A DNA stretch of 64,000 nt from an uncultured Dehalococcoidales bacterium (GTDB taxonomy: Bacteria > Chloroflexota > Dehalococcoidia > GIF9 > UBA5629). The stretch spans positions 7,206 through 71,205 of the forward strand of contig CAZKOL010000003.1 in assembly GCA_964554375.1 (NCBI GenBank), in the 5' to 3' direction. Made by a program: the position numbers and the translations under genes. Below, one piece after another: positions 1 through 29,695 of this stretch (positions within the stretch are counted from its first letter, which is position 1; the number at the start of each line of letters is the position of its first letter). The notes under the pieces were generated by a model. It saw only the letters and a program-made list of their open reading frames with translations, had not been told where the DNA came from and did no database searches.

Positions 1-110
1 AACGGGGCTGCAACAATGGACCTTGCCGCAATGCTTAACATATTTCCTGTTGCGGCACTGGAACTGGTCAGAGATTAAATGTTTACTTTTTACAGATGCT
101 GTTTTATGGC

Positions 111-1964
111 TCATTCCATGAACTTATTTCCAAGCATCAGCATCGATAACGGTTGAACCGCAGCCTGCACTACTATGCTGCTTTTATCAGCCTTGATCAA
201 CGTGCCCTTACCACGCCATCGCTTGTCCTCTGAGTCAATTAGAGCGTACCATCCTCTGGAAAATATCGCTGAATCCAGCGGCACTGTGTGCTGACCGAAA
301 TTAAAGTATAGCGTCACGCAGCTTTCACCCAACCATCGGCGAATATGCAAAAGGCCATCAGCATTGTCAGATACCAGCATATGGCGCTTGCTTAAATTGG
401 ACAAAGCCGGTACATTGCGGCGCAATGAAATCAGCCGCCGATAGTACTCAAGCATTTCTCTGTGTCGTAGCAGTTGGGCGGATGGCATGTTCAGTGTCGA
501 CTTAAGCATCGTAGATGCAGACGCAGGGTCGGGGGGCTCCGTTTTCCACTTAAACGCTGCGAATTCTTCACGGCGCCCTTTTCTGACTGCCTCAATCAAT
601 TTACTGTCCGAGTGGTCGATAAAATATAGGAACGGGGCTTCCTCACCGTATTCCTCCCCCATAAAGATTAGCGGCAGGAAGGGGGAAAGCAGCACTGTAG
701 AGGCCGCCAGCTTCAACGCCTCAAATGACACAAGTTTGCTAAGCCGTTCGCCATACATACGGTTGCCTACCTGGTCATGGTTCTGGGAAAACACGACCAA
801 CTTGCTTGGTGCGGCCCTTCTGGACGAAGTGCCACGGCTGCGTTTCCAGAAGGTGGCATATTGACCGGAATAGATGAATCCTTCCGCAAATGTTTTTTCT
901 AGTTGATGCCTTTTGCCGTAATCCATGTAATATCCCGTTTTTTCTTTCGTAAGAACCATGTGCAAAGAATGATGAAAATCATCATTCCACACCGCGTCAA
1001 GGCCATAACCACCTGACTTGCGAGGTTTGATCAAACGGACATCATTGGAATTGCTTTCGGCGATAACATGGATTTTCCTGTTTAGTTTTTCCCCGAGGCC
1101 ATGCACAGCAGCAGTCAATTCTTCGAGTATATTAAGAGGGGAACAATCAAATATGGCATGAACTGCATCCAAACGCAGCGCATCTATATGAAAATCGTTC
1201 ACCCAGTAAAGCGCATTTTGGATAAAATAGTTTCTGACACCGTCGCTATATGGACCATCATAGTTGACGGCCTCTCCCCATGGAGTCTCGTACTTGCTTG
1301 TGAAATAAGGCGCGAAATCACGCAGGTAATTCCCTTCTGGCCCCAGGTGGTTGTAGACTACATCGAGTACCACCGCCAGGCCATTTTTGTGACACTCATC
1401 AACCAATTCCTGCAGTCCCGATGGTCCGCCGTAACTGTTCTGCACGGCATAGGGGAAAACGCCATCATAGCCCCAGTTGCGGCAACCCGGGAACTGGGCT
1501 ATCGGCATTAGTTCGATGGCAGTAATTCCCAAATGCTTGAAATATTCCAGTTGAGCTATCACCGCCTTGAAAGTCCCCTCGCGTGAAAAAGTCCCCACAT
1601 GTAACTCATAGAATATGTACTGCTCGATAGGTATGCCCTGCCAGCCCTGATCTGACCATGCATAGATCGTGCTGATTACTTGGGAAGGGCCATGCACGCC
1701 AGCCGGCTGAAATCTGGAAGCCGGGTCAGGTCGCTCAAGTTCATCGTCCAACCGAAGGTAATAAAGCGTCCCAGCCCCTATATTTTCTAGCTGCCCGAGG
1801 AAATATCCACCAGCTACTCTGCGTAATTCACTGTGGAAGTCATGAGGGCCGACAATATGTAAGTGTACATGTTTCCGTCCAGGAGCCCAGACATTGAATT
1901 CGCATATACCCGTGCCACTCAAAATAGCGCCCGGTTGAATGTATTTCTTTATATTACCCGACAA
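111..1964 (-). CDS. treZ: malto-oligosyltrehalose trehalohydrolase (GH13)
   Basis: 617 aa ORF with GH13 catalytic motifs (VLDVVYNHLGPEGNYL, GYDGVFPY) and an N-terminal E-set domain typical of TreZ. Confidence 0.75.
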   Translation of the reverse strand: MSGNIKKYIQPGAILSGTGICEFNVWAPGRKHVHLHIVGPHDFHSELRRVAGGYFLGQLENIGAGTLYYLRLDDELERPDPASRFQPAGVHGPSQVISTIYAWSDQGWQGIPIEQYIFYELHVGTFSREGTFKAVIAQLEYFKHLGITAIELMPIAQFPGCRNWGYDGVFPYAVQNSYGGPSGLQELVDECHKNGLAVVLDVVYNHLGPEGNYLRDFAPYFTSKYETPWGEAVNYDGPYSDGVRNYFIQNALYWVNDFHIDALRLDAVHAIFDCSPLNILEELTAAVHGLGEKLNRKIHVIAESNSNDVRLIKPRKSGGYGLDAVWNDDFHHSLHMVLTKEKTGYYMDYGKRHQLEKTFAEGFIYSGQYATFWKRSRGTSSRRAAPSKLVVFSQNHDQVGNRMYGERLSKLVSFEALKLAASTVLLSPFLPLIFMGEEYGEEAPFLYFIDHSDSKLIEAVRKGRREEFAAFKWKTEPPDPASASTMLKSTLNMPSAQLLRHREMLEYYRRLISLRRNVPALSNLSKRHMLVSDNADGLLHIRRWLGESCVTLYFNFGQHTVPLDSAIFSRGWYALIDSEDKRWRGKGTLIKADKSSIVVQAAVQPLSMLMLGNKFME

Positions 1965-1998
1965 TTGAATTTAATATCCTTCCCCAATCAATGCCGAT

Positions 1999-4146
1999 TT
2001 ACGCTGTTTTCTTTCCTGATAATCTGCGGAACAGGATCAGCGATCTGGATGGCACATGAATGAGTGAACCGCCTTTGATTCGGCTATCTTCTTTTGTTTG
2101 TGCGGACATATTTGTGTCCATTATTATTTCCCAGGTGGCTCCGCGCACGAAAGCAGGTAATTGAAACTCAACGTTTTCATGGCAGGAATTTAATATCATG
2201 AAGAAATCATCGTCAATGAGTGGACTGCCGTCTTCATTAAGCTCACGTGTGGCATGACCACTGAGACGTACACCGATACAACGTATCCATTCTGATTCCC
2301 AATCATTGTCAGTCATCTCCAGCCCATCAGGCCTCAGCCACATGACATCCTTGATTTCTGATCCATGTATAGCCCGCCCCTGGAAAAACTTCCTTCTGTG
2401 AAACACCGCGTGTGATTTCCGCAGCGCTATCAGTTTGCGGGTGAACTCGAGCAACGCCATTTTCCTCTCGTCCATCTCCCAATTCAACCAGCTTATCTCA
2501 TTATCCTGACAATAGGCATTATTATTGCCCTGCTGCGTCCTATAGAATTCATCCCCGGCGCTAAGCATTGGTATACCCTGTGACAGCATGAGTGTAGCAA
2601 TAAAATTGCGCTTCTGTCTTTCCCTCAATTCAATAATATCAGGGTCATCTGTTGGCCCTTCTTTTCCGCAATTCCATGAAAGGTTCAGATCGAGGCCGTC
2701 ACGGTTTTCTTCACCATTAGCTTCATTGTGCTTATCGTTGTAGCTGACCAGGTCTTCAAGAGTGAAGCCGTCATGGCAGGCCACGAAATTGATGCTGGCG
2801 TAGGGGCTCCTGCCATCCCATTCATATAGGTCGCTGCTTCCGGTCAGCCTATAGCCAAGTTCGGCCATTTGGCCGGCATCACCGCGCCAGAAGCGTCTAA
2901 GGGTATCGCGGTATTTGCCGTTCCATTCCGTCCAGAGCAAGGGGAAATTACCGACCTGGTAACCACCTTCCCCAATATCCCAAGGTTCAGCTATCAGCTT
3001 GACCTGCGAAATGACCGGGTCCTGGTGAATAATGTCAAAAAAGGCCGATAATTTATCCACATTTTTTGTTTCTCTGGCTAGAGCGGATGCCAGGTCGAAA
3101 CGGAAACCGTCAACGTGCATTTCACTGACCCAGTAGCGCAGGCTATCCATAACAAGTTGCAGGACCTGAGGATGATTGGCATTAAGAATGTTGCCGGTGC
3201 CGCTGTAGTCCATATAATAGCGTTTATTTTCTGGATATAACCGATAATAGGTGGGATTGTCAATGCCACGGAAGCTAAGTGTAGGACCGAGTTGATTACC
3301 CTCGGCTGTGTGATTGTACACCACGTCGAGTATGACTTCCAGTCCTGCGCGATGCAAGGCCTTGACCATTGCCTTGAACTCAGTCACCTGTTGGCCGGCA
3401 TCTCCCGTGCTGGAGTAAACTGCAGAAGGTGAAAAATAATTCAGGGTATTGTATCCCCAGTAGTTTGTCAGCCCTTTTTCCGCCAGGTGCTTGTCAGGTA
3501 CAAACGTGTGTATTGGCATCAACTCTATAGTCGTAACGCCAAGCTTCTTGAGATATTCAAGCACCGGGGGAGAGGCGAGAGCTGAGTATGTACCCCTGAG
3601 TTCAGGTGGGACCGACTGGTTCTTAATGCTAAAGCCTCTCACATGCAACTCGTAAATAATTGTCTCTGACCAGGGAATACGCGGCAATTGATCATTCTCC
3701 CAGGGGAACGAAGAATCTATCACAATGCATTTAGGCACATATCCCACATCATTTGTTGCTTCAAACGATAAGTCTGAATCAGGATGCCCGATGCTATACC
3801 CGAATATGGAAGCATCAGTATCTACAGATCCAGTCACCGCTTTGGAATATGGATCTATAAGCAGCTTGTTATGATTAAAACGCAGGCCGTTCTCCGGGTC
3901 ATAAGGTCCATAGACCCTGTATGCGTATGTCTGGCCGATGCATATTCCATGTACGCACGCATGCCAGATATGGGCAGTCACTTCTTGAAGTGATATTCGC
4001 TCGTTTTCTACAATGGCGGACGGGCTAGCGAAAAGGCACAATTCAATCTTTTCTGCATGTTCAGAGTAAATGGCAAAATTGACACCGTCACCCAACCATG
4101 TACTGCCCAGAGGGTACGGTTTTCCTAATGTAACGCTTCTGACCAT
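1999..4146 (-). CDS. glgX: glycogen debranching enzyme / isoamylase (GH13)
   Basis: 715 aa. N-terminus (LGSTWLGDGVNFAIYSEHAEKIELCLF) and catalytic blocks (ILDVVYNHT, GFRFDLAS, EPWD) match GlgX/TreX. Confidence 0.8.
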   Translation of the reverse strand: MVRSVTLGKPYPLGSTWLGDGVNFAIYSEHAEKIELCLFASPSAIVENERISLQEVTAHIWHACVHGICIGQTYAYRVYGPYDPENGLRFNHNKLLIDPYSKAVTGSVDTDASIFGYSIGHPDSDLSFEATNDVGYVPKCIVIDSSFPWENDQLPRIPWSETIIYELHVRGFSIKNQSVPPELRGTYSALASPPVLEYLKKLGVTTIELMPIHTFVPDKHLAEKGLTNYWGYNTLNYFSPSAVYSSTGDAGQQVTEFKAMVKALHRAGLEVILDVVYNHTAEGNQLGPTLSFRGIDNPTYYRLYPENKRYYMDYSGTGNILNANHPQVLQLVMDSLRYWVSEMHVDGFRFDLASALARETKNVDKLSAFFDIIHQDPVISQVKLIAEPWDIGEGGYQVGNFPLLWTEWNGKYRDTLRRFWRGDAGQMAELGYRLTGSSDLYEWDGRSPYASINFVACHDGFTLEDLVSYNDKHNEANGEENRDGLDLNLSWNCGKEGPTDDPDIIELRERQKRNFIATLMLSQGIPMLSAGDEFYRTQQGNNNAYCQDNEISWLNWEMDERKMALLEFTRKLIALRKSHAVFHRRKFFQGRAIHGSEIKDVMWLRPDGLEMTDNDWESEWIRCIGVRLSGHATRELNEDGSPLIDDDFFMILNSCHENVEFQLPAFVRGATWEIIMDTNMSAQTKEDSRIKGGSLIHVPSRSLILFRRLSGKKTA

Positions 4147-4271
4147 AAAATCTCAGTAGCAAATTATACAATAGTTAGCGGTAAAAGCCTATGATCCGCA
4201 TTGCATCATAATTATTGTTACCGAAAGTAGTATCGTTGCCTCAAAAGTAGTGTTACCCAAGGGAGGAACAC

Positions 4272-4690
4272 ATGACACGAGGCAGAATACTGGAATACTT
4301 GCAAGCTGATAGAGGAAGGTATCTAAGAGCAATCAAAGCGGAGAAGAAAAAAGTCCTGGATGAGTTTGTCAGGGTAACTGGTTATCATCGAAAGTCAGCT
4401 ATTAGGGCATTGAATAGGCCAGATCACGTTAAGCGAATTGGAAAACGTGGCCGTCCGAGATAATACCAATCTTCGGTTTCCAGCGAATTGAAGTATCTGT
4501 GGGAGATAACTGACCATTTGTGCAGTAAGCGTTTGCATCCCCTCTTACCTTAGATTTTGAATGTCTTAAAGAGGAGTGTCGGTCACATCATCAGTCCCGA
4601 AGTAGAGACTGGCCTGAGAGCGCTTAGCCCATCGACTGTAGATAGACTATTGAGGACCTGTCACCAGAAAGGGGCCTGATTTATGACGCA
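4272..4690 (+). pseudogene. decayed transposase (integrase-core type) N-terminal remnant
   Basis: The 63 aa ORF (VTGYHRKSAIRALNRP) continues in two shifted frames (SELKYLWEITDHLCSKRLHPLLP; ILNVLKRSVGHIISPEVETGLRALSPSTVDRLL) typical of IS transposase N-termini. No catalytic domain follows. Confidence 0.45.
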
Positions 4691-4954
4691 ATGATCACTC
4701 ACCGGGGAACACTTATTTTGACGCAACACGTGACCCACAAAACTAACATTATGGCTGGTACCAAAAAGGGGAGGTCCTCACACACTTGTACTACTGATTG
4801 GGAATCCCCTGCATTTGATCTAAATCATTATTTGCTGCAACGATGCGCCTTTTAACGGGATATCCAATTCCTTTGAGACTATCGAGCCTCACCCATCGGA
4901 AGTAGTATTGGTATTGTAGTCAGCAGTTTTGAAATACCGCGTATTTGAGATAAA

Positions 4955-6808
4955 TCAATCCGGGCTCGTGGAATCAGGCGCAAGAGGAATAGTAAAACTG
5001 AAAGTACTTCCTTTGTCCAATTCACTTTCCACCCATATTTTTCCCCCATGCATTTCAACCATGGACTTGGTAATGCTCAAACCCAGGCCGGTTCCTCCGG
5101 TTTTACGTGTTACAGAATTATCCACTCTGTAAAACTTGGTGAATAATTTAAACTGCTCGTCAGCCGAAATTCCAATGCCACTATCCACTATATCTACCTG
5201 TCCATACTTTTCAATACTATGTGCTCGTACTGTTATTGATCCACCTTTTGTAATGTATTTACAGGCATTACTGATCAGGTTGGTCAGAATCTGAGTAAGA
5301 CGAGCGTTGTCCGCAAGTACAATTATGCGATTCTCCGGCATATTAAGATGTACTTCTGTTTCTTTTTCTTCCAATTGTGTTTGAAGCGAGGCAATGACTG
5401 AGTACACAATTTCCTGAAGGGTAATAGCTTTTATCTTCAGATCAACTCGCCCTGCTTCAATCCGAGAAATATCCAGCAAGTCGCTGACCAATGTTATCAG
5501 CCTATCAGAACTACCACGAACGATTTCAAGATAGCTTCTCTGTTCTTGACTAATAGCACCTGCTTCGCCATCCAATATCATATCTACAAAGCCTTTAATT
5601 GAGGTTATTGGGGTGCGAAGCTCATGCGAAACCATTGAAACGAACTCTGTCTTCAGCTGGTCTACTCGATCAAGCTCAGTAATATCATGGATAGCAAAAA
5701 CACAACGCCCTGACTGTCCAAACTGCCCTTTGATTGCCTGAATATTAATTTCAAGCACCAAATCTCGAAGTCGTTTTTTCACAACACAACCTGGTTTATC
5801 AAGCTGCTGCACTAAGATATCAGTTAGCTCACGTTGAGAAAGTCCCAGATAAGCCTCGATGTTGTTACCAATCATTTCTTCTGCAGAATGACCGAAAATT
5901 TTCTCGGTGGTTGGATTCAGAGACAAAATATTATTTGCAGAATCCAAGACAATTATCCCCTCGGCCATACTTGAGAGAATTGCTTGAATCTCATCTCTTT
6001 GATTAGTTATTTCGCGCGAAAGAGCTTCAATTCTATCTGTATATACTTTCAACTTATCGTATTCTGGCTTCATCGAATATGGGCCGTAGTTTACGATAAT
6101 ACTATGGTTCAGTCTTCTGTTAGTGATTGTAGTAATACTAAGGTTTGGAGCTTTTATCTTAGTCATCCTTAAGCCTATTTCATCAATATAACCTTCCTCA
6201 CCAGTAACCAATCTTATATAATCACGTTTTTTTACCCTACCTGTAGCAGTAATCTCAAATCCGGCAAAAATATCACCAAAAGTGTCGCGGAGGGCCAGGA
6301 ACATAACTAAAATTAGAATCCCGATACCGAGTAAAACCGCATTTGTCGGCACCCCCCAGATACTTAGAAGAGTTAACGCCACTACCACAAGCAGTAGTAT
6401 TAAAGCCGTCCGCTTTACAGTGGCCAGAAAGGATGACGGAATCTCCAATTTTTCCGAATATATTTTTATAAGCTTGTCTGCCATTCTGATAAAAACCCAC
6501 ACAATAGAGAGTATCAGTATGGTCCATAAGGCTTTCTCAGAAATCGATATCCAATCTTCAGGGAGCGCCGATACCGCTAAAGCCAGCGCTATACCGATGA
6601 TAATAAACCAAAAAAAAGAGGGGGCTTTTACCGTGCTAATTATCGCTATATTGCCTTCCCATTGTGCCTTATCCGCCCACCGATCAAACATATTCCAGCA
6701 TAATCTCCATAATGAATATCCTACTAGTATTACTAACAAGAACAATCCTGCAGGGATTAATACTCCGGACCATTCCTGAATTATCTGGATTATCTTTGAT
6801 TCATCCAT
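4955..6808 (-). CDS. MscS-like mechanosensitive channel domain - PAS - histidine kinase fusion
   Basis: N-terminal TM helices plus an MscS beta-domain signature (GDIFAGFEI...[36 protein letters not shown]). These are followed by PAS ([34 protein letters not shown]), HisKA (SHELRTP) and HATPase_c (GGTGLGLSI) domains. Confidence 0.75.
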
Positions 6809-6832
6809 TATTGCAGCAATCCAAAGTGGTAA

Positions 6833-7534
6833 CTAAAAAGGGGCGTCTCCTGGGATAACCACCAGACCATTTTCAGTAATGCGCATTCTATTCATGCCAG
6901 TATCATGTTTCGTACCACGCAATTTTGTTATCTGAATAGAACGAGATACAGGAGTGGTGTGAAGAACAATGACACCCTGAGCTATAAACTCTTCCACCCC
7001 ATATCGGCTGATCATATTTCCTTCTTGCGGCATTTCCGTTATGAGAATTGTGGTACACCCCAATTCACGCAGCAAGGAGCTCAAGCGCATAATATCGCGG
7101 CGAAGGCATAGCACGTCGGAATAGGGCAGCCCCAACTGAGACAGAGAGTCAAATACGATACGTTTGGCATCTATTTCCATTACCTGTTTATGTATAATAT
7201 CTAACATAGTATCAATTTTAACTTCATTACCGGGTAACTCGAACGGAGTGGGAGATTGCACAAATCTTAATTTACCCGTCTTGTTTAAACCTTCAAGGTC
7301 CCAACCATATCGTCCCATGTCTTGAGTTACATCAGAGATCTCTTCTTGTAATGTTACAAAAACACCATTTTCAGCATATTTGGTAGCCCCATTATAGAGA
7401 TACTGAATACCAAATGTAGTCTTCGCGGAGCCAGCTGCACCTGTAAGCAGGATTGTGCGTCCTCGTGGGAAGCCACCCTCTATGAGATCGTCAAATCCGG
7501 TTATTCCTGTTGGGACCCTCTCTATATCGGTCAT
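6833..7534 (-). CDS. single-domain KaiC-like RecA-superfamily ATPase
   Basis: TGITGFDDLIEGGFPRGRTILLTGAAGSAKTTFGIQYL matches the KaiC/RadA-like N-lobe. Strong RBS AGGAAAGGGAG. The Walker A is deviant (GAAGSAKT). Confidence 0.7.
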   Translation of the reverse strand: MTDIERVPTGITGFDDLIEGGFPRGRTILLTGAAGSAKTTFGIQYLYNGATKYAENGVFVTLQEEISDVTQDMGRYGWDLEGLNKTGKLRFVQSPTPFELPGNEVKIDTMLDIIHKQVMEIDAKRIVFDSLSQLGLPYSDVLCLRRDIMRLSSLLRELGCTTILITEMPQEGNMISRYGVEEFIAQGVIVLHTTPVSRSIQITKLRGTKHDTGMNRMRITENGLVVIPGDAPF

Positions 7535-7563
7535 CTCCCTTTCCTCTGTTTATAGTTATTTTT

Positions 7564-7818
7564 TCAGGCAGAATAGCGGGCTAATCTCGGATCTTTAAAG
7601 CGAAGAGCAAACAGCCTTGGCTTATCCCCGAGGCTAAATATCAGCTCTTTTTGCTGTAGATTATAAAGCACGCTGTGTATCTTAGAAAACGGAATATCGC
7701 ACAGAGCGCTGATAACCTTGGCGGTAGATTCGCCCTCCTGATTTAAGAATCTGAAGACTTTTATTTCATCTTCACTTAAATTGAGCAACTCAGGGTATCT
7801 GTCAATAAAAGCACTCAT
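7564..7818 (-). CDS. small winged-helix DNA-binding protein
   Basis: 84 aa from the ATG that has a GGGAGGG RBS. HTH-like segment STAKVISALCDIPFSKIHSVLYNLQQKEL. Sits between the two KaiC-like genes. Confidence 0.4.
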   Translation of the reverse strand: MSAFIDRYPELLNLSEDEIKVFRFLNQEGESTAKVISALCDIPFSKIHSVLYNLQQKELIFSLGDKPRLFALRFKDPRLARYSA

Positions 7819-7870
7819 AGTGTACTGCCCTCCCATTCCTTTCGCTCACGATGGAAAATAAAATCATTCA

Positions 7871-8986
7871 TCATTCAAGCGTCACCCATTCCCTTGAAAA
7901 CTTCGACCATTTCATATTGGCAACTCGGGCCATATGCGCATCCTGTATCTTTAACTCAATGACCACATCCATCAGATATTTCACATTATTTATTTCACGT
8001 TCATTGATGGACCCTTCTTCCACAATAAAGATACTGGAGACACCTCCATAACTTGATGCAGTGCGTGCAAGCTGAGCCAGGAACCGCTGGACTAAGACCA
8101 GTTCGAAATTGATAAACAAGCTGCTAACTGAATCTATTATCCTCCTTCCCCCGGACTTATCGGTGATCGTCTGCCCTAATTCCAAGCCAGCATCTGAAAT
8201 GATGGCAGCCAGCTGATTGAGGTCCATCATGCCGCTGATAGCAAACTTTTCATCACTTTTCACTACGCCTCTATTCCAGCTGAAGCAGTCCACCATACGG
8301 AACATGCTCTCCTGCTCGTATTGAATGAGGCTGTTTTTACCGAGCATCTCACCCAATATTTCTCTAATCATGGCAGGATCATCATCCAATGTTATTACCA
8401 TACACCTCTCTCCACTTAACATGCCTGCCGTGACGAATTGACGTGCTAAAGTGCTCTTGCCTGAACCAGTATCCCCGATAAACAATATGTTACTTCCTGG
8501 AGGTATACCTCCATCAAGCGCTACATCAAGGTTGGGCACACCGGTGGACACTCGCGTGGCTGGAGGAGGTTTCTCAATAATTTTTGCTGTTACAGCGGCT
8601 GTCTCATCTATAAAAGGCATTGAACGATTAAGCAATGCTGTAATCCGCGCACGTAACACGGGCATACTGAAAGGTTTAGTCACAAAATCATCTACCCCGT
8701 CACGGAAAGCCTTTAAAGCATCCTGTTCTTGCTGAAGCGCTGTCAACATAATTATCGGCAGAGCGCGTGTTTCCGGCATATTGCGTAATTCCCGTGCAAG
8801 TTCATAGCCATCTTTATCAGGCATCATTGCATCGGTAATTATGATGTCGGGCTTTCTCATCTTTATCATCGACAGTGCATCTGCAGCATTTTCAAAAGCA
8901 GCTACTTCAAAACCAGCCTTCCTCAACCCTGTTTTTAAAAGGCGTAAGATTCCAGGATCATCATCGATAATTATTACATAGCTCAT
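7871..8986 (-). CDS. response-regulator receiver domain fused to KaiC-like ATPase
   Basis: REC domain (IIIDDDPGILRLL...DIIITDAMMPDKDGYEL) followed by a KaiC-like domain with Walker A GDTGSGKST. Start chosen at the ATG with a GGAG RBS; the ORF-track start is an upstream TTG. Confidence 0.7.
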   Translation of the reverse strand: MSYVIIIDDDPGILRLLKTGLRKAGFEVAAFENAADALSMIKMRKPDIIITDAMMPDKDGYELARELRNMPETRALPIIMLTALQQEQDALKAFRDGVDDFVTKPFSMPVLRARITALLNRSMPFIDETAAVTAKIIEKPPPATRVSTGVPNLDVALDGGIPPGSNILFIGDTGSGKSTLARQFVTAGMLSGERCMVITLDDDPAMIREILGEMLGKNSLIQYEQESMFRMVDCFSWNRGVVKSDEKFAISGMMDLNQLAAIISDAGLELGQTITDKSGGRRIIDSVSSLFINFELVLVQRFLAQLARTASSYGGVSSIFIVEEGSINEREINNVKYLMDVVIELKIQDAHMARVANMKWSKFSREWVTLE

Positions 8987-9094
8987 GCGGTTCTCCGCCA
9001 AACAAACCCGGCTAGATAATTAGCCTTGATCTTACTTATTATTCTATATCCATTTCCTTCATTGCAGACTACATGATAGTTCATAATAGATAAT

Positions 9095-10777
9095 TTATAT
9101 TACATTATTAGTTGCCTCGTTAGACAACGAAAGTAAGTACTTGAGAGGGATTTCAATCCAGGTTGGTCTATTATTCAGTTCATAGTTTAGCTCGTATATA
9201 GCCTTTTCAAGTTGGAAGGCAGTCAACGCTTTTTGTGTTGCCTCTCTGGATGCAGGCAGATATGAAGTCGAGCCGTTTAAAGAAACGCTAAAATAGCCTT
9301 TGAGGAAATCCTTACAAACCTGTCCCTCCCAAATTCTACCCCATTTTTCCATCTCATTAAATCTGTTCTTTTGTAGCAGATTAAAATCAAACAGCTTCGA
9401 GTACACCGCATAATTAAAGGAGCGAAGCATCCCGGCTACATCTTTCAGCGGGCTGTTTTTAGCCCTCCTTTCTTTTAGTGTCCTGGCCGGTTCGCCTTCA
9501 AAATCAATGATTATCCAGTCAGAGACAGTTTTTAATACCTGTCCCAGATGATAATCACCGTGATAGCGTATTTTATGTGTCCTTTCATCAGCAAGCACCA
9601 CCAGGTCTCCGGCTTTGTTCAAATACATCAAATCATTCGTAAGTACCTGCTTAATCTGTTCCTGGATATGAAGCGGGAACAAGTTACATTTATCATTTAA
9701 AATATGCAGGACCTCACTGGTATACGATTGGATACTCTTAATCCATATGCGCATGTCAGATTCCTCAATTAGTTCAGGAGAAAAGTCATCGATCCCACAA
9801 TTCGACGCCAAAGCGTTATGCAATTCTCCGGTAATTTCCCCAAGGTGGAAAGCATCCTGCAAGTACGTATTTGAAAACTGACGTACCACCAATTCTTTCA
9901 TTTCAGGGGTCGCCTTATCTTCAGCAGACAGCAGGGACTCATCTTTCAGAATAAAGTCATAGAAATTGTGCAGATGCCCTAATGTATATTTCCATCCATC
10001 ACCCTGACTTACAATAAAATTCTGAAGTGAGGCTATAGTAGATTTGAAATCGCCTTTTCCAGAATACTCAATATATCCAGCTACCAAAGGCATATTTTTA
10101 AAATTGGTCATTGTGGTTAAAAAGAGGGGGATTTCCAGGTCAGGATTAGTCCCATTTGCCAGTCGACGAAAGTTTTTCATGACGAAAGCTTCATCGTAAA
10201 TAACCGATGTATTGCTCTGTTCCACCCCCATAAACCGGACAGAATTAACAGCTAACGGAGACTGCGCATCTCTGGAAGCAGTTAGTAATGCAGTAGCAGT
10301 ACAATTGAAATGACCAGCCATGGAATCGATACGTTCTGAAACTTCGACCATCTGCAGATGCTTACGTAAAAATTCCTCGTCTTGAAGCGCATTAAGAACC
10401 AGAAGATTGCTGATGGGAGTCTGTAGCTCCAGTATTACATCTTCAGAGATAACAGGCAGCTTTCCTGTCGGGGAATCAGGCGATTGAATAACTACAGGAA
10501 AATAATAGATTTCAGAATCTTCATTGTCATATAGCAGCTCTATCAGCATCATCACATATACCGGCAAGTTACAACTTACGAGAGCGGCATCATAGAGATG
10601 AATGTGTTTGATTCCCTTCATCTTGCTGCCGAACCACCGCTGTCTTTTTATATAGTCTATCGGCACGGCTTCTATTATTGACGGAAGCAGCGCAACATAA
10701 TCACCAGGTTCAACAAGGTTCGCAGTCCTGTAAGTTGGAAACTCCATGTTTTTCATTTCTTTCCAAGCTGCCGTCAT
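9095..10777 (-). CDS. mak: maltokinase (maltose 1-phosphotransferase, Pep2/Mak family)
   Basis: Catalytic-loop HGDYHLGQVL and DFEGEP...SPLKDVAGMLRSFNYA motifs are diagnostic of Mak-type kinases. Start codon uncertain. Confidence 0.65.
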   Translation of the reverse strand: MTAAWKEMKNMEFPTYRTANLVEPGDYVALLPSIIEAVPIDYIKRQRWFGSKMKGIKHIHLYDAALVSCNLPVYVMMLIELLYDNEDSEIYYFPVVIQSPDSPTGKLPVISEDVILELQTPISNLLVLNALQDEEFLRKHLQMVEVSERIDSMAGHFNCTATALLTASRDAQSPLAVNSVRFMGVEQSNTSVIYDEAFVMKNFRRLANGTNPDLEIPLFLTTMTNFKNMPLVAGYIEYSGKGDFKSTIASLQNFIVSQGDGWKYTLGHLHNFYDFILKDESLLSAEDKATPEMKELVVRQFSNTYLQDAFHLGEITGELHNALASNCGIDDFSPELIEESDMRIWIKSIQSYTSEVLHILNDKCNLFPLHIQEQIKQVLTNDLMYLNKAGDLVVLADERTHKIRYHGDYHLGQVLKTVSDWIIIDFEGEPARTLKERRAKNSPLKDVAGMLRSFNYAVYSKLFDFNLLQKNRFNEMEKWGRIWEGQVCKDFLKGYFSVSLNGSTSYLPASREATQKALTAFQLEKAIYELNYELNNRPTWIEIPLKYLLSLSNEATNNVI

Positions 10778-10802
10778 TGCTTACAAACCCTGATTACAGC
10801 AG

Positions 10803-12041
10803 TTATTTGATAACGGACCTCATCATTGCCAATTCATCACGCACCAAACGGGGAGTCAAGAAATTTTTGCGGACGTGCTCTCGACCTAAATTACCTAATT
10901 CCCTGGCATAATCATTATCGGCAATCAGTCTAACTATTTTTTCGGCACATTCCCTGATATTGCTAACCAGGCAATAATCCAATTGGCCCGTTAGCTGTAG
11001 GGGTATACCTCCCACTCGACTACCTATAACCGGTTTGCCTTTCCAGAGTGTTTCAGACACTGCCAGACCAAAGCCTTCACGTAATGATTTCAGAATACCC
11101 ACACTGCACACCCTTTGAAATACATTAACCTCAATATCGCCGATGCCGTCAATATTTGTGTAAACGTGAATATCCTCGTCTTTAGATGCTTCAGCATCCA
11201 CAAGCCGGAGTGTTGAAAAAGTCTCCGGGTCATCCAGTGTTAGTGAACTTATAATAACCAGCTGCAAATCAGGGATCTCATTTTTAACCGCAAAGAAACA
11301 TTCTATGATGCCCATAGGGTCTTTCCACTTGTCCAGCCTTGAAACGTGAAGAAGAATCGGCCTTTGCGGATCAATACCCAGGCTGCTTACAAATTCAAGG
11401 CTTTGATCCAGAGGAACATCACGGTTTTTCAGGCTGAGCGGATCAATAGCCGGGGCAATAGTCTTTATCACCGGTAATTTCAAGTCAGCCGGTATGAATT
11501 CCTGCATAGTAAATATAGCGCCTTGATATTCCTCGATAAGCGGTTTTAAAAATGTCCAGGCTGCCTTATCCGGTTCAGAAGAATCTAAATGACAGCGCCA
11601 TATCCAGCGTGCCTTTTTAGAACTAATAAAGTGTGGCAAAGCAAGAAGATGATGATTGTGGAGAATAACCACGTCATAGTTGTTATCAGCGAAATCAGCC
11701 GCAATATCGCTATTATACTGGAGATACAATTGCTTCTCTTCATCACCTAACTCCTGAGGAGATCCCTGTAAGGCATTATGTATAACTTTGGCAATGTTTA
11801 AAAACTTATCATTGCTGCGTAGCGCATACCAATCTGCCTGAATACCCAGGTCCTGTTCGATTGGAACTGTAGCGCAAAGAATTTCTGGCACCCCACCCCC
11901 AAATGGGGTTGAAGTTATGTTACACACCCGCAAACCACGAAGGTCCCGGGCAATTTGATTAACCTCCTCCAATAACAAATCATCAATAATGCCCTGATAT
12001 TGGGTTAGTTTTTTCTCTGCGGTAATAACTTTCTCTAGCAC
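10803..12041 (-). CDS. treT: trehalose glycosyltransferring synthase (GT4)
   Basis: 412 aa. Blocks STPFGGGVPEIL, KVIHNALQG, WIWRCHLDSSEP and REGFGLAVSETLWKGKPVIGSRVGGI closely resemble archaeal/bacterial TreT as recalled from memory. Confidence 0.65.
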   Translation of the reverse strand: MLEKVITAEKKLTQYQGIIDDLLLEEVNQIARDLRGLRVCNITSTPFGGGVPEILCATVPIEQDLGIQADWYALRSNDKFLNIAKVIHNALQGSPQELGDEEKQLYLQYNSDIAADFADNNYDVVILHNHHLLALPHFISSKKARWIWRCHLDSSEPDKAAWTFLKPLIEEYQGAIFTMQEFIPADLKLPVIKTIAPAIDPLSLKNRDVPLDQSLEFVSSLGIDPQRPILLHVSRLDKWKDPMGIIECFFAVKNEIPDLQLVIISSLTLDDPETFSTLRLVDAEASKDEDIHVYTNIDGIGDIEVNVFQRVCSVGILKSLREGFGLAVSETLWKGKPVIGSRVGGIPLQLTGQLDYCLVSNIRECAEKIVRLIADNDYARELGNLGREHVRKNFLTPRLVRDELAMMRSVIK

Positions 12042-12102
12042 GTGCTATTCTCTCACCTGTAACAGCAATTTAAATTGACGTTAAAATAGAAATACTCCCT
12101 CT

Positions 12103-13779
12103 CTATTCAACGTTACAAGTTCTCTCCTGAAATACAGATTCGTTTTTCATTTCCAGACGGAACCATAGAAAACCATATGGGCTTAGAGTCAACAAGTAGG
12201 GCAATTCTCCGATACGGGGGAAGCGTACTTCACCTAACAATTCAACAGGGATTGCTCCCTTGTATCTCTTCAGGTCCAGCTCCACCGGCTGAGAAGAATT
12301 TGCCAGGTTTTGCACGACGAGAATATTATCATCCTGGTAACTGCGGATGTATGCTAATACACAACTGTTTCTTGGTTTTAGAAACTCTAAAGTGCCACGG
12401 CCGAAAGCCCGGTGCTTCTTACGCACCGCAATCAATCTCTTCATACTATTGAGTAATGAACTGGGTGTACGCATTTGTGCCTCAACGTTAATGGTCTGAT
12501 AACCGTAGACCGGATTACTAATAACAGGCAGGTAGAGTTGCTCCGGATCTATCTCAGAGAATCCCCCATTCCGATCGACACTCCATTGCATGGGAGTTCG
12601 TACACCATTACGATCACCCAGATAAATGTTGTCACCCATTCCAATCTCATCTCCATAGTAGATAATTGGACTACCGGGCATTGTAAGCAGAATGCTGTTC
12701 AACAGTTCCACCTTTCGCCGGTCATTGTCTACCAATGGCGCAAGCCTGCGGCGTATCCCCAGATTCAATCGCATTCTAGAATCAGCCGCGTACGTTTGCC
12801 ACATAAAAGCGCGCTGCAATTCCGTGACCATTTCAAGGGTCACTTCATCATGATTACGCAGAAAGAGCCCCCACTGGCTAGTATCGGGGATCTCAGGAGT
12901 GCGGCTTATTACATTGACAATAGGTTGACGATTTTCTCTTGCCAGCGCCATAAAAATATTGGGCATGAGGGGAAAATGAAATGCCATATGAAATTCATCA
13001 CCATCTCCAAAATACTGACGAACGTCCCCGGGCAATTGGTTTGCCTCGGCCAGCAGCAGTCTATCCTGGTAATTTTCGTCTATTTTGCGGCGCAGTTCCT
13101 TGAAATATACATGATTTTCAGGAAGATTTTCACAGTCAGTGCCTTCTTGCTCAAATAGGTATGGAACAGCATCGCAACGCAGCCCGTCCATGCCCTTATC
13201 AAGCCAGAAAAAAGCTACCTTCAACATTTCCTCCTGCACCTGAGGATTATTATAGTTAAGGTCCGGCTGGTGGCTAAAGAAACGATGCCAGTAATACTTA
13301 TTTAAACCGGTATCTAATGCCCAATTAGATTTCTCCGTGTCAAGAAAAATAATGCGCGCATCCTTGTATTTGTCCTGATTATCACTCCACACATAGTAAT
13401 CATGTTTAGGATTATCGGGAGATCTGCGAGCTTCCTGAAACCACCGGTGCTGGTCCGAGGTATGGTTAACAACAAGGTCGGCAATAACCCGTATCCCCAG
13501 TAGATGCGCCTTATTAAGGAACGCCTGGAAGTCTTCAATGCTCCCGTAGTCCGGATGGATGTCATTAAAATCGGAAATATCGTAGCCATCATCCTTCAAA
13601 GGAGAGGGATAAAATGGCAGCAGCCAGATGCAGTCGATCCCCAACTCCTTGAGATAGTCCAGCTTTTCCGTTAAACCCCGAAAATCTCCTTTGCCATCGT
13701 TATTGGCGTCATAAAAAGCGCGTACATGCACCTCATAGAAAATTGCGTCCTTATACCATAGCCTATCCGAATCTTGCAT
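12103..13779 (-). CDS. treS: trehalose synthase / maltose alpha-D-glucosyltransferase (GH13)
   Basis: [29 protein letters not shown] and [15 protein letters not shown] are hallmark TreS motifs; length 558 aa. Confidence 0.85.
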
Positions 13780-13908
13780 ACTATCCCTTATACACGTTAA
13801 TTTTCAGCGATTCCTGAATCTCTCTAACCATTGCTTCTCTATAATCCAGGACGTTTACCTCTCGCTACATAAATATATTTCGCCTGACTTATCCTCTCTA
13901 ATAGTATT

Positions 13909-15906
13909 CTACATAAAATAATCAAAATCTCTCTCCGTGTGAATACGCCGCCGGATAAGGAATATATGGGCAGGACAAACAAACGGATTCAGTTCGATAT
14001 AATTGCGCCGGCCACTCCACAGGAAGCGGGAGTCGCTTAAAAGATCGTGCATCTGATACGGTTGCTCTGAATCAAAATTCAATAACTCGGGAGAGAGTTC
14101 TACCCATCCAGAGTGAGTATGATGCGGATCGAGGTTCACTATTACCAGCAATGTGTTGGACAGGTCATCAGTTGATTTGCTATAACAAATCAACTGGTCA
14201 TTATCAACTTCATGGAAAAGCAGATTCAAGTTGCTCTGAAGAGCAGCATTATCTCTCCGGATCTTATTCATTAGCGAAATAAAGTCGCGCAGGCTATCCT
14301 GTAGCCCTGTATTCCAGTGTTTTATCTCATATTTCTCAGAGTTAAGGTATTCTTCACTGCCCTGCTCTTTGGGGCTATTTTCACAAAGCTCGAAAGCAGG
14401 GCCATAGATTCCGTAACTAGCGCCCAGAGTAGCTGCCAGTACCAACCGCGACATAAAGGCTGGCCGCCCGCCGGATTGAAGATATTCCGTCAGAATATCC
14501 GGGGTATTAGGCCACAGGTTCGGACGAAAATACTCTCGGACTTCCGTTTTAGTAAGCTCATTTAAATATTGTGTTAATTCCCACTTTGTATTGCGCCAGG
14601 TAAAATAAGTGTAAGATTGCGTAAAGCCCAATTTAGCGAGATTGTACATTACCTTGGGACGAGTAAATGCTTCAGCCAGGAAGATAACATCAGGATAAGC
14701 CTCTTTTATTTCGGAAATCAACCATTCCCAAAAGCCGAAGGGCTTGGTGTGAGGATTGTCAATTCTGAATATGTGAATTCCCTGTTCAATCCAATAGACC
14801 ACAATGCTTTTTAACTCATCCCACAATTCACTCCAGTGCTCGGTATTGAAATTTAGAGGATAAATATCCTGATATTTTTTTGGTGGATTCTCAGCAAATT
14901 GCACCTTTCCATCCGCGCGCAACAGAAACCATTCAGGGTGCTGGGTCACATAGGGATGATCAGGCGAGCATTGGAAAGCTATGTCCATGGCAATTTCAAT
15001 GCCATAATTATTGGACTTTTGCACTAGATTATGAAAGTCTTCGGTAGTGCCCAACTCAGGAAGGATTTCTTTATGCCCGCCTTCCTGCGAACCTATTGCC
15101 CAGGGAGTTCCAGGGTCATCAGGATTGGCTGTAACGGTATTATTTTTCCCTTTGCGATCGGTTTGGCCAATAGGATGTATAGGAGGAAAATAGAGAACGT
15201 CAAAGCCCATTTCCGCAATATAGGGAAGCCAGTCTTCACAATCCTTGAACGTGCCATGGCGCAATTCCTGCGTGGCAGCCGAGCGGGGAAACATTTCATA
15301 CCATGTGCTGAAGCGGGCCTTCTCCCTATCAACTGAGACCGCCAATTCCTTAGGATAAGTGACGGCAAATCTTCTATCAGATAACTTGTCCATCGCTTCA
15401 GCGACATTTTCAGCAAGTATCAACTTCATCTTGTCTTTCTGCGATACCTGCTCCGATTGAAGCGCCTTTAGCCACTTGCCTATCAACCTTTTATCACCGT
15501 TAGCAGCTCTCAGGGATGCTTCTTCAATAAGCCGGGTACCTGCTATTAAATGAATTGCAGTATCTTCTTCACCTGCATTAAGCCTTTTCTCAAAGTTATC
15601 GCGCCAGGATTTAAAGCTATCAACCCAGGCTGTAACCGTGTAAAAGTAGTTTCCCAGCTCCGTTACTATAAATGACGCCCTCCACCGGTCATTGATAACA
15701 CGTTCCATGGGTATCTCACGCCACCGAGAATCAAGCGCTTGCCTATACGATAGTAAAGCAGTGAGTACATCGTGGCCATCAGCATAAATATCCGCCTCTA
15801 CTACCACCGTCTCACCTATAATTCGTTTAACTGGGAAACGTCCATCATTTATCGCAGGCTTCACAAGGTCTATAACTACTCGTGATCTACTATCTGTCTT
15901 TTTCAC
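13909..15906 (-). CDS. glgE: alpha-1,4-glucan:maltose-1-phosphate maltosyltransferase
   Basis: 665 aa. The N-terminus VVIDLVKPAINDGRFPVKRIIGE and GH13-like core match GlgE. Confidence 0.8.
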   Translation of the reverse strand: MKKTDSRSRVVIDLVKPAINDGRFPVKRIIGETVVVEADIYADGHDVLTALLSYRQALDSRWREIPMERVINDRWRASFIVTELGNYFYTVTAWVDSFKSWRDNFEKRLNAGEEDTAIHLIAGTRLIEEASLRAANGDKRLIGKWLKALQSEQVSQKDKMKLILAENVAEAMDKLSDRRFAVTYPKELAVSVDREKARFSTWYEMFPRSAATQELRHGTFKDCEDWLPYIAEMGFDVLYFPPIHPIGQTDRKGKNNTVTANPDDPGTPWAIGSQEGGHKEILPELGTTEDFHNLVQKSNNYGIEIAMDIAFQCSPDHPYVTQHPEWFLLRADGKVQFAENPPKKYQDIYPLNFNTEHWSELWDELKSIVVYWIEQGIHIFRIDNPHTKPFGFWEWLISEIKEAYPDVIFLAEAFTRPKVMYNLAKLGFTQSYTYFTWRNTKWELTQYLNELTKTEVREYFRPNLWPNTPDILTEYLQSGGRPAFMSRLVLAATLGASYGIYGPAFELCENSPKEQGSEEYLNSEKYEIKHWNTGLQDSLRDFISLMNKIRRDNAALQSNLNLLFHEVDNDQLICYSKSTDDLSNTLLVIVNLDPHHTHSGWVELSPELLNFDSEQPYQMHDLLSDSRFLWSGRRNYIELNPFVCPAHIFLIRRRIHTERDFDYFM

Positions 15907-15982
15907 TATAACTCACCTCGCTTTCACAGACAGCCAATGATAAGGCATTGCCATCAGTTTACTATAAACGCTTGCCATAAGA

Positions 15983-16012
15983 ACAATTTAGCATTGCGTT
16001 ATTTGACTAGCT
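15983..16012 (+). promoter_or_regulatory. candidate sigma70-type promoter for malQ-glgB
   Basis: TTGACT, a 17-18 nt spacer, then TAAGAT, in the 270-bp divergent intergenic region between glgE and malQ. Confidence 0.25.
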
Positions 16013-16178
16013 GCTCGGTGAAACGGTAAGATAGCAAATCAGACAGTAACCTTACCACCATTTGTTACCGCGTTCAAAATAATGCAACGTAAGAAGCATA
16101 ACCACGAGAGATATAAGTCCAATAAACAATTGGCCTGACAATAAAACTTCATCTGCCCTGGGGGAGTATATACATTTT

Positions 16179-28630: not shown

Positions 28631-29695
28631 GTGCAATACATCGTGGAAGAAGTAACTTGTAAATACTGTAACTCAAACAACATCGTAAAAGATGGCACTA
28701 ATATTGGTGAACAGTATTACCTTTGCCGTTCATGCAATAAACGATTTAACCTCAAAGATGCATTGGTACATATGAAAACCCCTGTAAGTGCCGTATCTGC
28801 TGCTGTTTCTATGTATTACAGAGGAATGTCGATTAGTAATATTCGGGACGAATTGAAACAGCTATATAATCTAGATGTATCTGATTTTGCAGTCTATAAC
28901 TGGATTGAACGGTTTACCAAAGATGCTATAAAGATAACAGGGAACTATCATCCTGATACTGGTTACGTTTGGCTTGCAGATGAAACAGTTATTGATGTAG
29001 CAGGCAAACAGTACTGGCTGATCGATGTAATTGACCTCAAAACCCGCTTTCTTTTGGCCTCTAGGCTATCAGCGCATCGTTATATGGATGATATAAGGGA
29101 AACATTCAAAGAAGCTTACAATCGGGCTGGAAAGATGCCAAAAGTCATAATGACAGACCACCTGGTTGGATATGTACGTGCTATCCCATCAGTATTTGGC
29201 ACTAATACAAAACACTTACAGGTTGAAAAGCTCACATCGAAGCCAAACAATAACATTATTGAACGCTTGCATGGTACGATTAAATCACGCACAAAGATAA
29301 TGCGAGACCTGAAAAGTCCTGAGACAGCGGAATTAATACTCGATGGTTTCTTTGTGCATTATAACTTCATAAGACCGCATGAAACGCTATCAAAATCTGG
29401 CGATGATATAACACCTGCTATGAAAGCTAACATCAAGTTTCCTTATGAGAATTGGGAGCAATTGATACGGAATAGCCAAGTTGCTAAAGCGGAACCACCA
29501 CCTGCAAGATTTGATGTCCCTCATCTACCTGTTTATCCAATCAGTGAGAGAGAAAGGAAACAGGAATATGAGCGGATACGTAAACAAGAAAGAAGAAGGC
29601 AGTTAAAACTCGGTATGCCGCCTCTACGCAAACGCGGCCCAGCTAAACCAAAGAATATACAAGTAGCTATTCAGGCAGTAAGGACGGATAAATAA
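28631..29695 (+). CDS. IS6-family transposase with N-terminal zinc ribbon
   Basis: CKYCNS...CRSCN zinc finger. DDE-region blocks WLADETVIDVAGKQYWLIDVID, IMTDHLVGY and NNNIIERLHGTIKSR match the IS6 catalytic core (DETY...D, TD..Y, NNRIE..H..IK.R). Basic C-terminal tail. Confidence 0.75.
   Translation: MQYIVEEVTCKYCNSNNIVKDGTNIGEQYYLCRSCNKRFNLKDALVHMKTPVSAVSAAVSMYYRGMSISNIRDELKQLYNLDVSDFAVYNWIERFTKDAIKITGNYHPDTGYVWLADETVIDVAGKQYWLIDVIDLKTRFLLASRLSAHRYMDDIRETFKEAYNRAGKMPKVIMTDHLVGYVRAIPSVFGTNTKHLQVEKLTSKPNNNIIERLHGTIKSRTKIMRDLKSPETAELILDGFFVHYNFIRPHETLSKSGDDITPAMKANIKFPYENWEQLIRNSQVAKAEPPPARFDVPHLPVYPISERERKQEYERIRKQERRRQLKLGMPPLRKRGPAKPKNIQVAIQAVRTDK

Follow-up and report, generated by a model that had tools for sequence, protein, structure and literature searches.

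For transporter-domain histidine kinases such as CbrA, a transporter-like membrane domain has been proposed as sensor. EnvZ and DesK have been proposed to read the physical state of the membrane (PMC8320348, PMC11237406). In these systems, the sensing elements are ordinary transmembrane (TM) helices or solute-transporter folds. A 2021 review on the sensing of mechanical stress by histidine kinases treats the mechanosensitive channel MscS solely as a separate channel (PMC8320348). A different arrangement is present in a 64,000-nucleotide stretch of DNA (the window; assembly GCA_964554375.1, contig CAZKOL010000003.1) from an uncultured Dehalococcoidales bacterium. One of its genes encodes a PAS histidine kinase with an N-terminal module homologous to MscS, a domain which EnvZ, DesK and CbrA do not possess. 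No description of an MscS-kinase fusion was found in the searchable literature, which is incomplete, and an earlier account elsewhere is possible. As far as searched, the architecture is undescribed; both parts are of known kinds.

Among the relatives of MscS, the cyclic nucleotide-gated channels of bacteria (bCNG) are comparable in that a member of the superfamily carries a C-terminal signalling-type domain and is thought to serve another role than osmotic rescue. As published, bCNG channels consist of an MscS-like channel to which a ligand-binding domain, hence an input, is appended. In the window kinase, in contrast, an output enzyme has been added and the cytoplasmic cage of the channel is replaced, which would make the MscS part the input instead of the effector. 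A domain binding cyclic nucleoside monophosphates, which defines bCNG channels, is not among the Pfam matches of the window kinase. The msc-gt-tpsp operon of Thermoproteus tenax links an MscS shortened to its TM region (197 aa) to trehalose synthesis, and a joint response to osmotic stress has been proposed (PMC3634074). It shares with the window the genetic tie between a truncated MscS and trehalose synthesis. However, the T. tenax protein is separate and small, a proposed efflux valve without kinase, PAS or KaiC partners, and the pathway is the archaeal TPSP route, not TreS/TreT.

KaiC-REC fusions and KaiC-like signalling hubs are known for archaea. In the 2017 census by Makarova, Galperin and Koonin, as summarised in PMC5847659, KaiC-REC fusions are limited to Methanosarcinaceae. 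The hubs, as far as described there, resemble the window system in a receiver domain (REC) fused to a KaiC/RadA-like ATPase, an extra stand-alone KaiC-like protein and a small winged helix-turn-helix (wHTH) protein, downstream of a two-component kinase. The window system differs from the archaeal KaiC-REC proteins of that description in being bacterial, in the N-terminal position of REC and in its tie to trehalose genes.

Domain architecture and family of the kinase

The kinase gene is an open reading frame (ORF) on the minus strand with an ATG start. Its parts were delimited by Pfam profiles, a family alignment and AlphaFold2 (AF2) structures, which are monomer models. Coordinates include the stop codon.

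4955..6808, minus strand: MscS-PAS-histidine kinase gene, 617 aa; identical protein on three independent metagenome contigs
6359..6808, minus strand: residues 1-150, four N-terminal TM helices corresponding to the sensor-paddle region (two additional helices and the TM1/TM2 equivalents) with family-invariant interfacial Trp; from hydropathy, AF2 and the YnaI 6URT alignment
6239..6358, minus strand: residues 151-190, TM3a (pore-helix equivalent, Gly/Ala-poor) and amphipathic TM3b, hinge R174-D175; from the PDB search, AF2 and alignment
6080..6238, minus strand: residues 191-243, MscS beta-domain (upper vestibule); PF00924, five strands in AF2
5963..6079, minus strand: residues 244-282, junction and long signalling helix with a/d heptad pattern; from the family alignment and AF2
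5681..5962, minus strand: residues 283-376, cytoplasmic PAS domain; PF00989 with 38.2 bits, AF2 secondary structure
5450..5680, minus strand: residues 377-453, dimerization and histidine phosphotransfer (DHp)/HisKA hairpin with the phospho-accepting His395 (SHELRTP); from Pfam, family alignment and AF2
4955..5449, minus strand: residues 454-617, catalytic ATP-binding domain with family-invariant N, G1, F and G2 boxes; from Pfam and family alignment

The original prediction of an MscS domain fused to a PAS histidine kinase was confirmed by four Pfam matches above cutoff in this one ORF. MS_channel_2nd (PF00924) matches residues 175-241 (E=4.7e-8, 33.5 bits, gathering cutoff 20.2), PAS (PF00989) residues 273-335 (E=1.6e-9, 38.2 bits, cutoff 22.6), HisKA residues 386-453 (E=7.3e-21, 74.4 bits, cutoff 26.9) and HATPase_c residues 500-610 (E=5.8e-31, 107.6 bits, cutoff 26.4). 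The MscS-like region, whose profile detection had been named as a check, is thus found by PF00924. The letters quoted at that time as pore-lining helix and beta-domain signature correspond to residues 178-242 of the translation. MscS had been assigned to the N-terminal third; the identity was correct, while the extent is larger and comprises the N-terminal 40% (residues 1-243).

Hydropathy reveals five TM segments, followed by an amphipathic segment. The public gene call P0169 (578 aa, start at Met40) omits codons 1-39 (6692-6808) and thereby loses the first TM helix. The family alignment backs the 617-aa start, with W13, P19 and W38 invariant in helix 1. Public annotation of the kinase family is inconsistent, either 'mechanosensitive ion channel' or 'ATP-binding protein'. 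These names hide the MscS-kinase architecture, which the databases contain but do not recognise.

With residues 1-266 as query, phmmer retrieved solely channels of the MscS family from the PDB. The best match was Helicobacter pylori MscS (4HW9, E=3.3e-9, query residues 102-241), followed by T. tengcongensis MscS (3T9N, E=1e-6) and then MSL1 and YnaI. The alignments span TM1 through the end of the beta-domain. Residues 1-284 were modelled by AF2 from a 131-sequence alignment, with a predicted local distance difference test (pLDDT) score of 94.7. Helices 3-48, 51-79, 84-121 and 125-150 are modelled at pLDDT >90, followed by a kinked pair (156-172/174-189), five strands within 197-242 and a single long helix (247-282). 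All of the top 50 Foldseek matches in the PDB belong to the MscS family. The five-TM paralogue YnaI (6URT) was best, with about 234 aligned columns covering all five helices. The full-length monomer was modelled at pLDDT 72 and a predicted template modelling score (pTM) of 0.36; it has a mixed beta/alpha segment at 284-375 (PAS) and helices at 377-412 and 421-451 (DHp).

Membership in the MscS superfamily has been defined by homology over a stretch of about 87-90 residues, from the pore-lining helix (TM3) to the upper vestibule (beta-domain) (PMC4560390). By PF00924, the 4HW9 match and Foldseek, the kinase protein falls within this published sequence definition. The beta-domain is canonical, with G206 and N230 invariant across all 131 aligned relatives. 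The homology of residues 1-243 to MscS/YnaI, evident in sequence and fold alike, covers the membrane part and the beta-domain. Chance similarity was ruled out by profile, PDB sequence search and structure, all of them significant.

The C-terminal part has the features of a class I HisKA sensor kinase, an H-box histidine in a DHp hairpin and N, G1, F and G2 boxes, with a PAS fold between the membrane module and the DHp. H395, N510/N514, D542-G544-G546, F556/F559 and G572/G574/G576 are invariant in 17 of 17 family sequences. Judged from these motifs, the kinase core appears to be catalytically intact and PhoR/WalK-like. Against the NCBIfam equivalogs, residues 251-608 scored 312 bits for PnpS (cutoff 400), 289 for WalK (725) and 261 for PhoR (334). 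The window kinase is related to the PhoR/WalK/PnpS core, but is not a member of these equivalogs. It shares with these PAS-HisKA kinases the matching core and a PhoB-like receiver in its partner. The N-terminal sensor region, in contrast, is unrelated to theirs, and the output of the partner is a KaiC-like ATPase instead of an OmpR-type DNA-binding domain.

The identical kinase protein occurs with the same neighbours on three independently assembled metagenome contigs. Profile search revealed about 19 clusters of 606-620 aa with PF00924, PAS, HisKA and HATPase_c, which are 48-63% identical to the window protein and belong to Chloroflexota wherever the source was named. The next-best profile matches were kinases without the MscS part, at less than half the score. 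A pattern scan with a junction-specific alignment, one genome per species across 185,579 species, detected the complete junction in four genomes, all of them metagenome-assembled genomes (MAGs) of Dehalococcoidales/Chloroflexota. The junction alignment retrieved beta-domain matches only from a large metagenome collection, and no further kinase fusion. In an exhaustive search of 1.84 billion representatives, the relatives of the module were mostly ordinary MscS proteins of about 350 aa. The joining of adjacent MscS and PAS-kinase genes by an assembly or frameshift error, or a chance similarity to MscS, would be a trivial explanation. It is most improbable: the ORF is uninterrupted on three independently assembled contigs, the junction is common to about 19 diverged clusters, and the evidence for MscS from profile, sequence and structure is significant throughout. 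The three contigs, the clusters and the conserved family junction rule out an assembly or frameshift artefact. Because the architecture recurs on these contigs and in these clusters with a conserved heptad junction, the fusion is real and under selection; it is rare and phylogenetically narrow.

Derived features of the membrane module and its outputs

Compared with MscS and YnaI (6URT, 9H95; MscS 4HW9, 3T9N, 2OAU), the window kinase shares the five-helix membrane domain, the kinked TM3a/TM3b, the beta-domain and the equivalents of the gate leucines. It differs in the lack of the alpha/beta cytoplasmic domain and the C-terminal barrel; its C-terminus runs on as a coiled-coil helix, PAS domain and kinase. 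Pfam gave no match in the window kinase to PF21082, the third MscS domain, which forms the alpha/beta part of the cage in the cytoplasm, whereas canonical relatives such as P0011 do match it. After the beta-domain, the AF2 model has one long helix where the MscS cage would be. In the 17-member family alignment, the junction is the best-conserved segment after the kinase motifs. The signalling helix has a clean a/d heptad pattern, with hydrophobic residues at 10 of 13 core positions. This conserved heptad-repeat helix takes the place of the cytoplasmic cage of MscS and leads into the PAS domain and the kinase core.

The pore-helix equivalent is altered as well. In MscS, the Gly/Ala pattern of TM3a is required for the tight packing and sliding of the seven TM3a helices. 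Canonical relatives have a TM3a of the type LTALGVGGLAVALALQD with Gly/Ala positions conserved to 80-96%. In the kinase family, the canonical G165, G166, A168 and A170 are changed to L/F, I/V/F, V/L/I and I/V/F, respectively. The mean Gly+Ala fraction of the TM3a core is 0.20 in the kinase-fused family, compared with 0.43 in 85 relatives bearing the alpha/beta domain and 0.50 in E. coli MscS; none of the 85 canonical relatives has a fraction <0.30. The Gly/Ala-rich TM3a, a hallmark of the MscS superfamily, is thus not retained by the kinase family. Of the pore-lining helix signature initially reported, the helix equivalent is present, but its Gly/Ala signature is degenerate and the third MscS domain is missing. 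Throughout the family, the hinge carries R in place of Q at 174 and D in place of N at 179. The hydrophobic gate residues L105 and L109 of E. coli MscS correspond by alignment to L167 and L171. Leucine is found at 167 in 10 of 13 family members and at 171 in seven of 13; the others have different hydrophobic residues, and position 171 is occupied by L, F or V.

The retained gate positions and the canonical beta-domain would also agree with a bifunctional channel-kinase, in which the module still forms a tension-gated pore, releases solutes such as trehalose on osmotic downshock and reports its gating to the kinase. A naturally truncated MscS from T. cruzi (9BGQ) is among the Foldseek matches (TM-score 0.81 on the target), indicating that loss of the full cage alone is no bar to a pore-forming assembly. 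Furthermore, the 197-aa TM-only MscS of T. tenax has been proposed to release trehalose (PMC3634074). In every fused form, however, the packing Gly/Ala of TM3a are replaced by bulky residues; the hinge is altered throughout the family and the cytoplasmic vestibule is missing. Canonical three-domain MscS genes adjoin TreT or OtsA in two related loci, L006 (14789-16147, 452 aa) and L008 (4363-5706, 447 aa), so that a separate valve accompanies the sensor-type module there. We regard a channel-kinase as unlikely. The loss of Gly/Ala in TM3a suggests, from the alignment, a sensor rather than a working channel, and together with the loss of the cage it makes the module probably no efficient valve any more. 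The MscS-derived module is most likely a receptor which no longer serves as an efficient solute valve.

The same module is coupled to other outputs. The nearest relatives are fusions of about 460 aa to DUF5752 and fusions of about 335-360 aa to a GerE/LuxR helix-turn-helix (HTH). For DUF5752, the PDB yields a match to 4CSO (E=6.5e-26), an entry titled 'OrfY protein, transcription factor'. In the literature on DUF5752 and OrfY, no MscS fusion was described under DUF5752, and nothing was found under OrfY. The derived residues W151, R174 and W13 are common to all fused forms and rare in canonical channels. Neighbour joining on the shared module yields a split with 35 of 36 fused proteins and none of 85 canonical channels on one side (24 of 25 bootstraps); the kinase family groups as a single clade in 21 of 25 replicates. 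One membrane module with three regulatory outputs (PAS-histidine kinase, DUF5752, GerE HTH) behaves as an input domain.

Both MscS(TM+beta)-DUF5752 genes examined (L007, 8001-9380; L008, 8001-9383) are located directly upstream of a TreT-type gene; one follows OtsA/OtsB (L008), the other is situated within a glycogen cluster. The GerE fusion at L009 (4210-5298, P0031) has sigma factors and kinases nearby, and trehalose genes are absent from this locus, the sole GerE-fusion locus examined. It rules out that every fused module resides in a trehalose locus. Judged by their domains, the module-GerE fusions would be membrane-bound one-component regulators. A wider reading is put forward tentatively: this MscS branch may have given up its channel function and turned into a portable receptor domain for membrane tension with at least three outputs, of which the kinase and OrfY versions would directly control trehalose/glucan homeostasis.

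Several other module proteins were observed. Further fusions to a GerE/LuxR HTH are P0007, P0008, P0023, P0025, P0033 and P0056. The module-only proteins P0026, P0027, P0030, P0032 and P0040 (243-271 aa) stop just past the beta-domain and group within the fused clade; these could represent either fragments or truncated MscS proteins that stand alone. P0020 (603 aa) has a duplicated N-terminal TM block ahead of the module and DUF5752. P0157 (569 aa) comprises MscS and about 330 C-terminal residues without an assigned domain. A stand-alone DUF5752 gene of 124 aa (L001, 19837-20211) is present in the glucan locus of the window organism, just left of the window.

The trehalose/alpha-glucan locus and the proposed signalling route

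The kinase gene is the last of a four-gene cassette on the minus strand, with intergenic gaps of 24-34 bp. Genes for trehalose and alpha-glucan metabolism flank the cassette on both sides.

6833..7534, minus strand: single-domain KaiC-like P-loop ATPase, 233 aa; PF06745 with 213.8 bits, 24 bp upstream of the kinase, neighbour in all family loci
7564..7836, minus strand: TrmB-type winged-helix DNA-binding protein, 90 aa; PF01978 with 34.4 bits, conserved neighbour
7871..9001, minus strand: response regulator of REC and a KaiC-like ATPase, probable start ATG 8986, 371 aa; Response_reg 106.9 and KaiC 87.4 bits, conserved neighbour
9095-10777, minus strand: putative maltokinase; NCBIfam 345.5 bits, below the cutoff of 375
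10803-12041, minus strand: TreT-like trehalose synthase; NCBIfam 337.8 bits, below the cutoff of 775
12103-13779, minus strand: TreS; NCBIfam above cutoff
13909-15906, minus strand: GlgE-type maltosyltransferase; precomputed Pfam GlgE_dom_N_S / GLGE_C on identical contigs
1999-4146, minus strand: GlgX/TreX debranching enzyme; NCBIfam above cutoff, downstream of the kinase and co-directional
111-1964, minus strand: TreZ; NCBIfam above cutoff, downstream of the kinase and co-directional

The order of transcription is GlgE-type gene, TreS, TreT-like gene, maltokinase, REC-KaiC, TrmB-wHTH, KaiC-like gene and MscS-PAS-kinase, followed by a gap of 808 bp, GlgX and TreZ. MalQ and GlgB, recognised by NCBIfam, are divergent from the cassette strand. 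The trehalose locus claimed in the original prediction is borne out by NCBIfam for TreZ, GlgX, the putative maltokinase, the TreT-like gene, TreS, MalQ and GlgB, and by Pfam for the GlgE-type gene. The translation of REC-KaiC contains the receiver motifs DDD, IIITD, MLTA and VTKP and the Walker A motif GDTGSGKST. It has the acidic pocket, Asp, Thr and Lys together with the fused P-loop, which characterise a two-component KaiC-type response regulator. From adjacency and family type, REC-KaiC is the likely phospho-acceptor of the kinase.

The order REC-KaiC, TrmB, KaiC, kinase is the same in five loci of other genomes (L004/L013, L005/L010, L006, L011 and L012), with kinases that share about 50-57% identity with that of the window. 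TreS and TreT are located within about 8 kb of the cassette in all five. Their position varies, before, after or abutting the cassette, which indicates selection on the linkage and not a frozen synteny. About 70 clusters make up the wider REC-KaiC family, in which Margulisbacteria are also represented.

In another Dehalococcoidales MAG (L028, 6286-13630), the set KaiC, REC-KaiC, TreT, TrmB and KaiC is followed by a soluble multi-PAS/GAF kinase of 1045 aa. Its internal PAS-DHp-CA part (residues 434-784) is 49% identical to window residues 263-611. A soluble kinase on the same output set implies that kinase core and output were already dedicated to the cassette, and that the MscS module is an exchangeable input. 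This relationship also fits a role of the MscS part as mere anchor or scaffold, which tethers and oligomerises the kinase, while the PAS domain reads a metabolite, the redox state or a partner such as the KaiC-like ATPase. The closest kinase cores belong to such soluble kinases of the same cassette, so that PAS sensing is ancestral in the lineage, and the PAS domain is conserved. However, a simple tether would not require some 240 residues. Neither the canonical conservation of the beta-domain nor the invariant set of interfacial Trp and the near-invariant junction between beta-domain and helix is expected of an anchor, and the pairing of the module with three different output domains is typical for input domains. 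The probability of an anchor function is accordingly rated as low.

We give a slight preference to a channel-derived sensor of membrane tension or lipid packing, which would drive a kinase/phosphatase switch via REC-KaiC, the second KaiC-like ATPase and the TrmB-type protein and thereby balance trehalose versus alpha-glucan. The lipid-exposed paddle helices would sense membrane tension or lipid packing as in MscS. Movement of TM3b and the beta-domain would travel down the coiled-coil helix and through the PAS domain to the kinase, where it would toggle between the kinase and the phosphatase state. The kinase would set the phosphorylation level of REC-KaiC. REC-KaiC, the second KaiC-like ATPase and the TrmB-type protein may then tune the expression (or activity) of the trehalose/alpha-glucan enzymes. 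Presumed targets are the upstream co-directional maltokinase, TreT-like, TreS and GlgE-type genes (9095..15906). On a change in turgor, carbon would be moved between trehalose, an osmolyte, and glucan, which is osmotically inert. We infer the coupling of membrane tension to phosphorylation, and likewise the phosphotransfer partner, the regulated genes and the transmission by the helix.

Several points weigh against such a sensor. The organisms are uncultured MAGs, and the putative pairing of the kinase with REC-KaiC is deduced from adjacency and family type. The solved proteins of the MscS family are all heptamers (seven chains in the matched PDB entries), whereas HisKA kinases are dimers, and the AF2 models are of a monomer; this mismatch is an interesting structural question in itself. 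Residual channel activity is possible with the L167 and L171 gate equivalents and the canonical beta-domain kept. The well-conserved PAS domain could be the true receiver of the signal. Finally, the GerE-fusion locus without trehalose genes indicates that not every form of the module is tied to trehalose.

The way in which EnvZ, KdpD, MtrB and other bacterial kinases sense osmolarity or membrane tension remains a matter of debate, since no distinctive structure marks their sensing elements. The sensing element of the window kinase would be a domain with a tension response understood atomically in its channel relatives. If true, the module would establish a new class of mechanosensory input domains in prokaryotes, and the protein would be the first histidine kinase with a physical stimulus predictable from a structurally understood tension sensor. 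The kinase would then offer a tractable model of force-to-phosphorylation coupling, an example of a channel turned receptor and a template for the design of synthetic mechanosensors. The MscS module is joined to a standard kinase by a short helix of high conservation, and trehalose versus glucan would be the obvious physiological output, provided that the proposed coupling holds.

Further features of the locus and the window

A scan of positions 4000-11000 for promoters and terminators gave counts no higher than in shuffled sequences, and a conserved palindromic operator upstream of REC-KaiC was not found across the loci. An extended -10 element similar to TGATAATATGA occurs about 45 nt upstream of REC-KaiC at L004 (~7740), L005 (~7740) and L011 (~7240), where the cassette is first in a transcription unit of its own. 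Neither the window nor L012, in both of which the cassette follows the maltokinase gene, has this element. Elements for rRNA, tRNA or Rfam families were not found in the window.

The 808-bp gap downstream of the kinase (4147-4954) contains a basic ORF of 63 aa on the opposite strand (4272-4463, plus strand), also called on the metagenome contigs and without a Pfam match. It may be the remnant of a mobile-element HTH. The guanine-plus-cytosine (GC) content is 0.41-0.48 in the glucan/trehalose locus (1-20000), compared with 0.46-0.60, mostly >0.50, in 22000-64000. The low GC of the locus may reflect acquired DNA. A transposase of the IS240/rve type (28631-29695) is located inside a pocket of 0.38 GC at 28-30 kb. 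At 53043-54464 on the minus strand, a protein of 473 aa has a GAF domain at its N-terminus and a phosphoribosyltransferase domain at its C-terminus, an unusual fusion of a regulatory domain with an enzyme.

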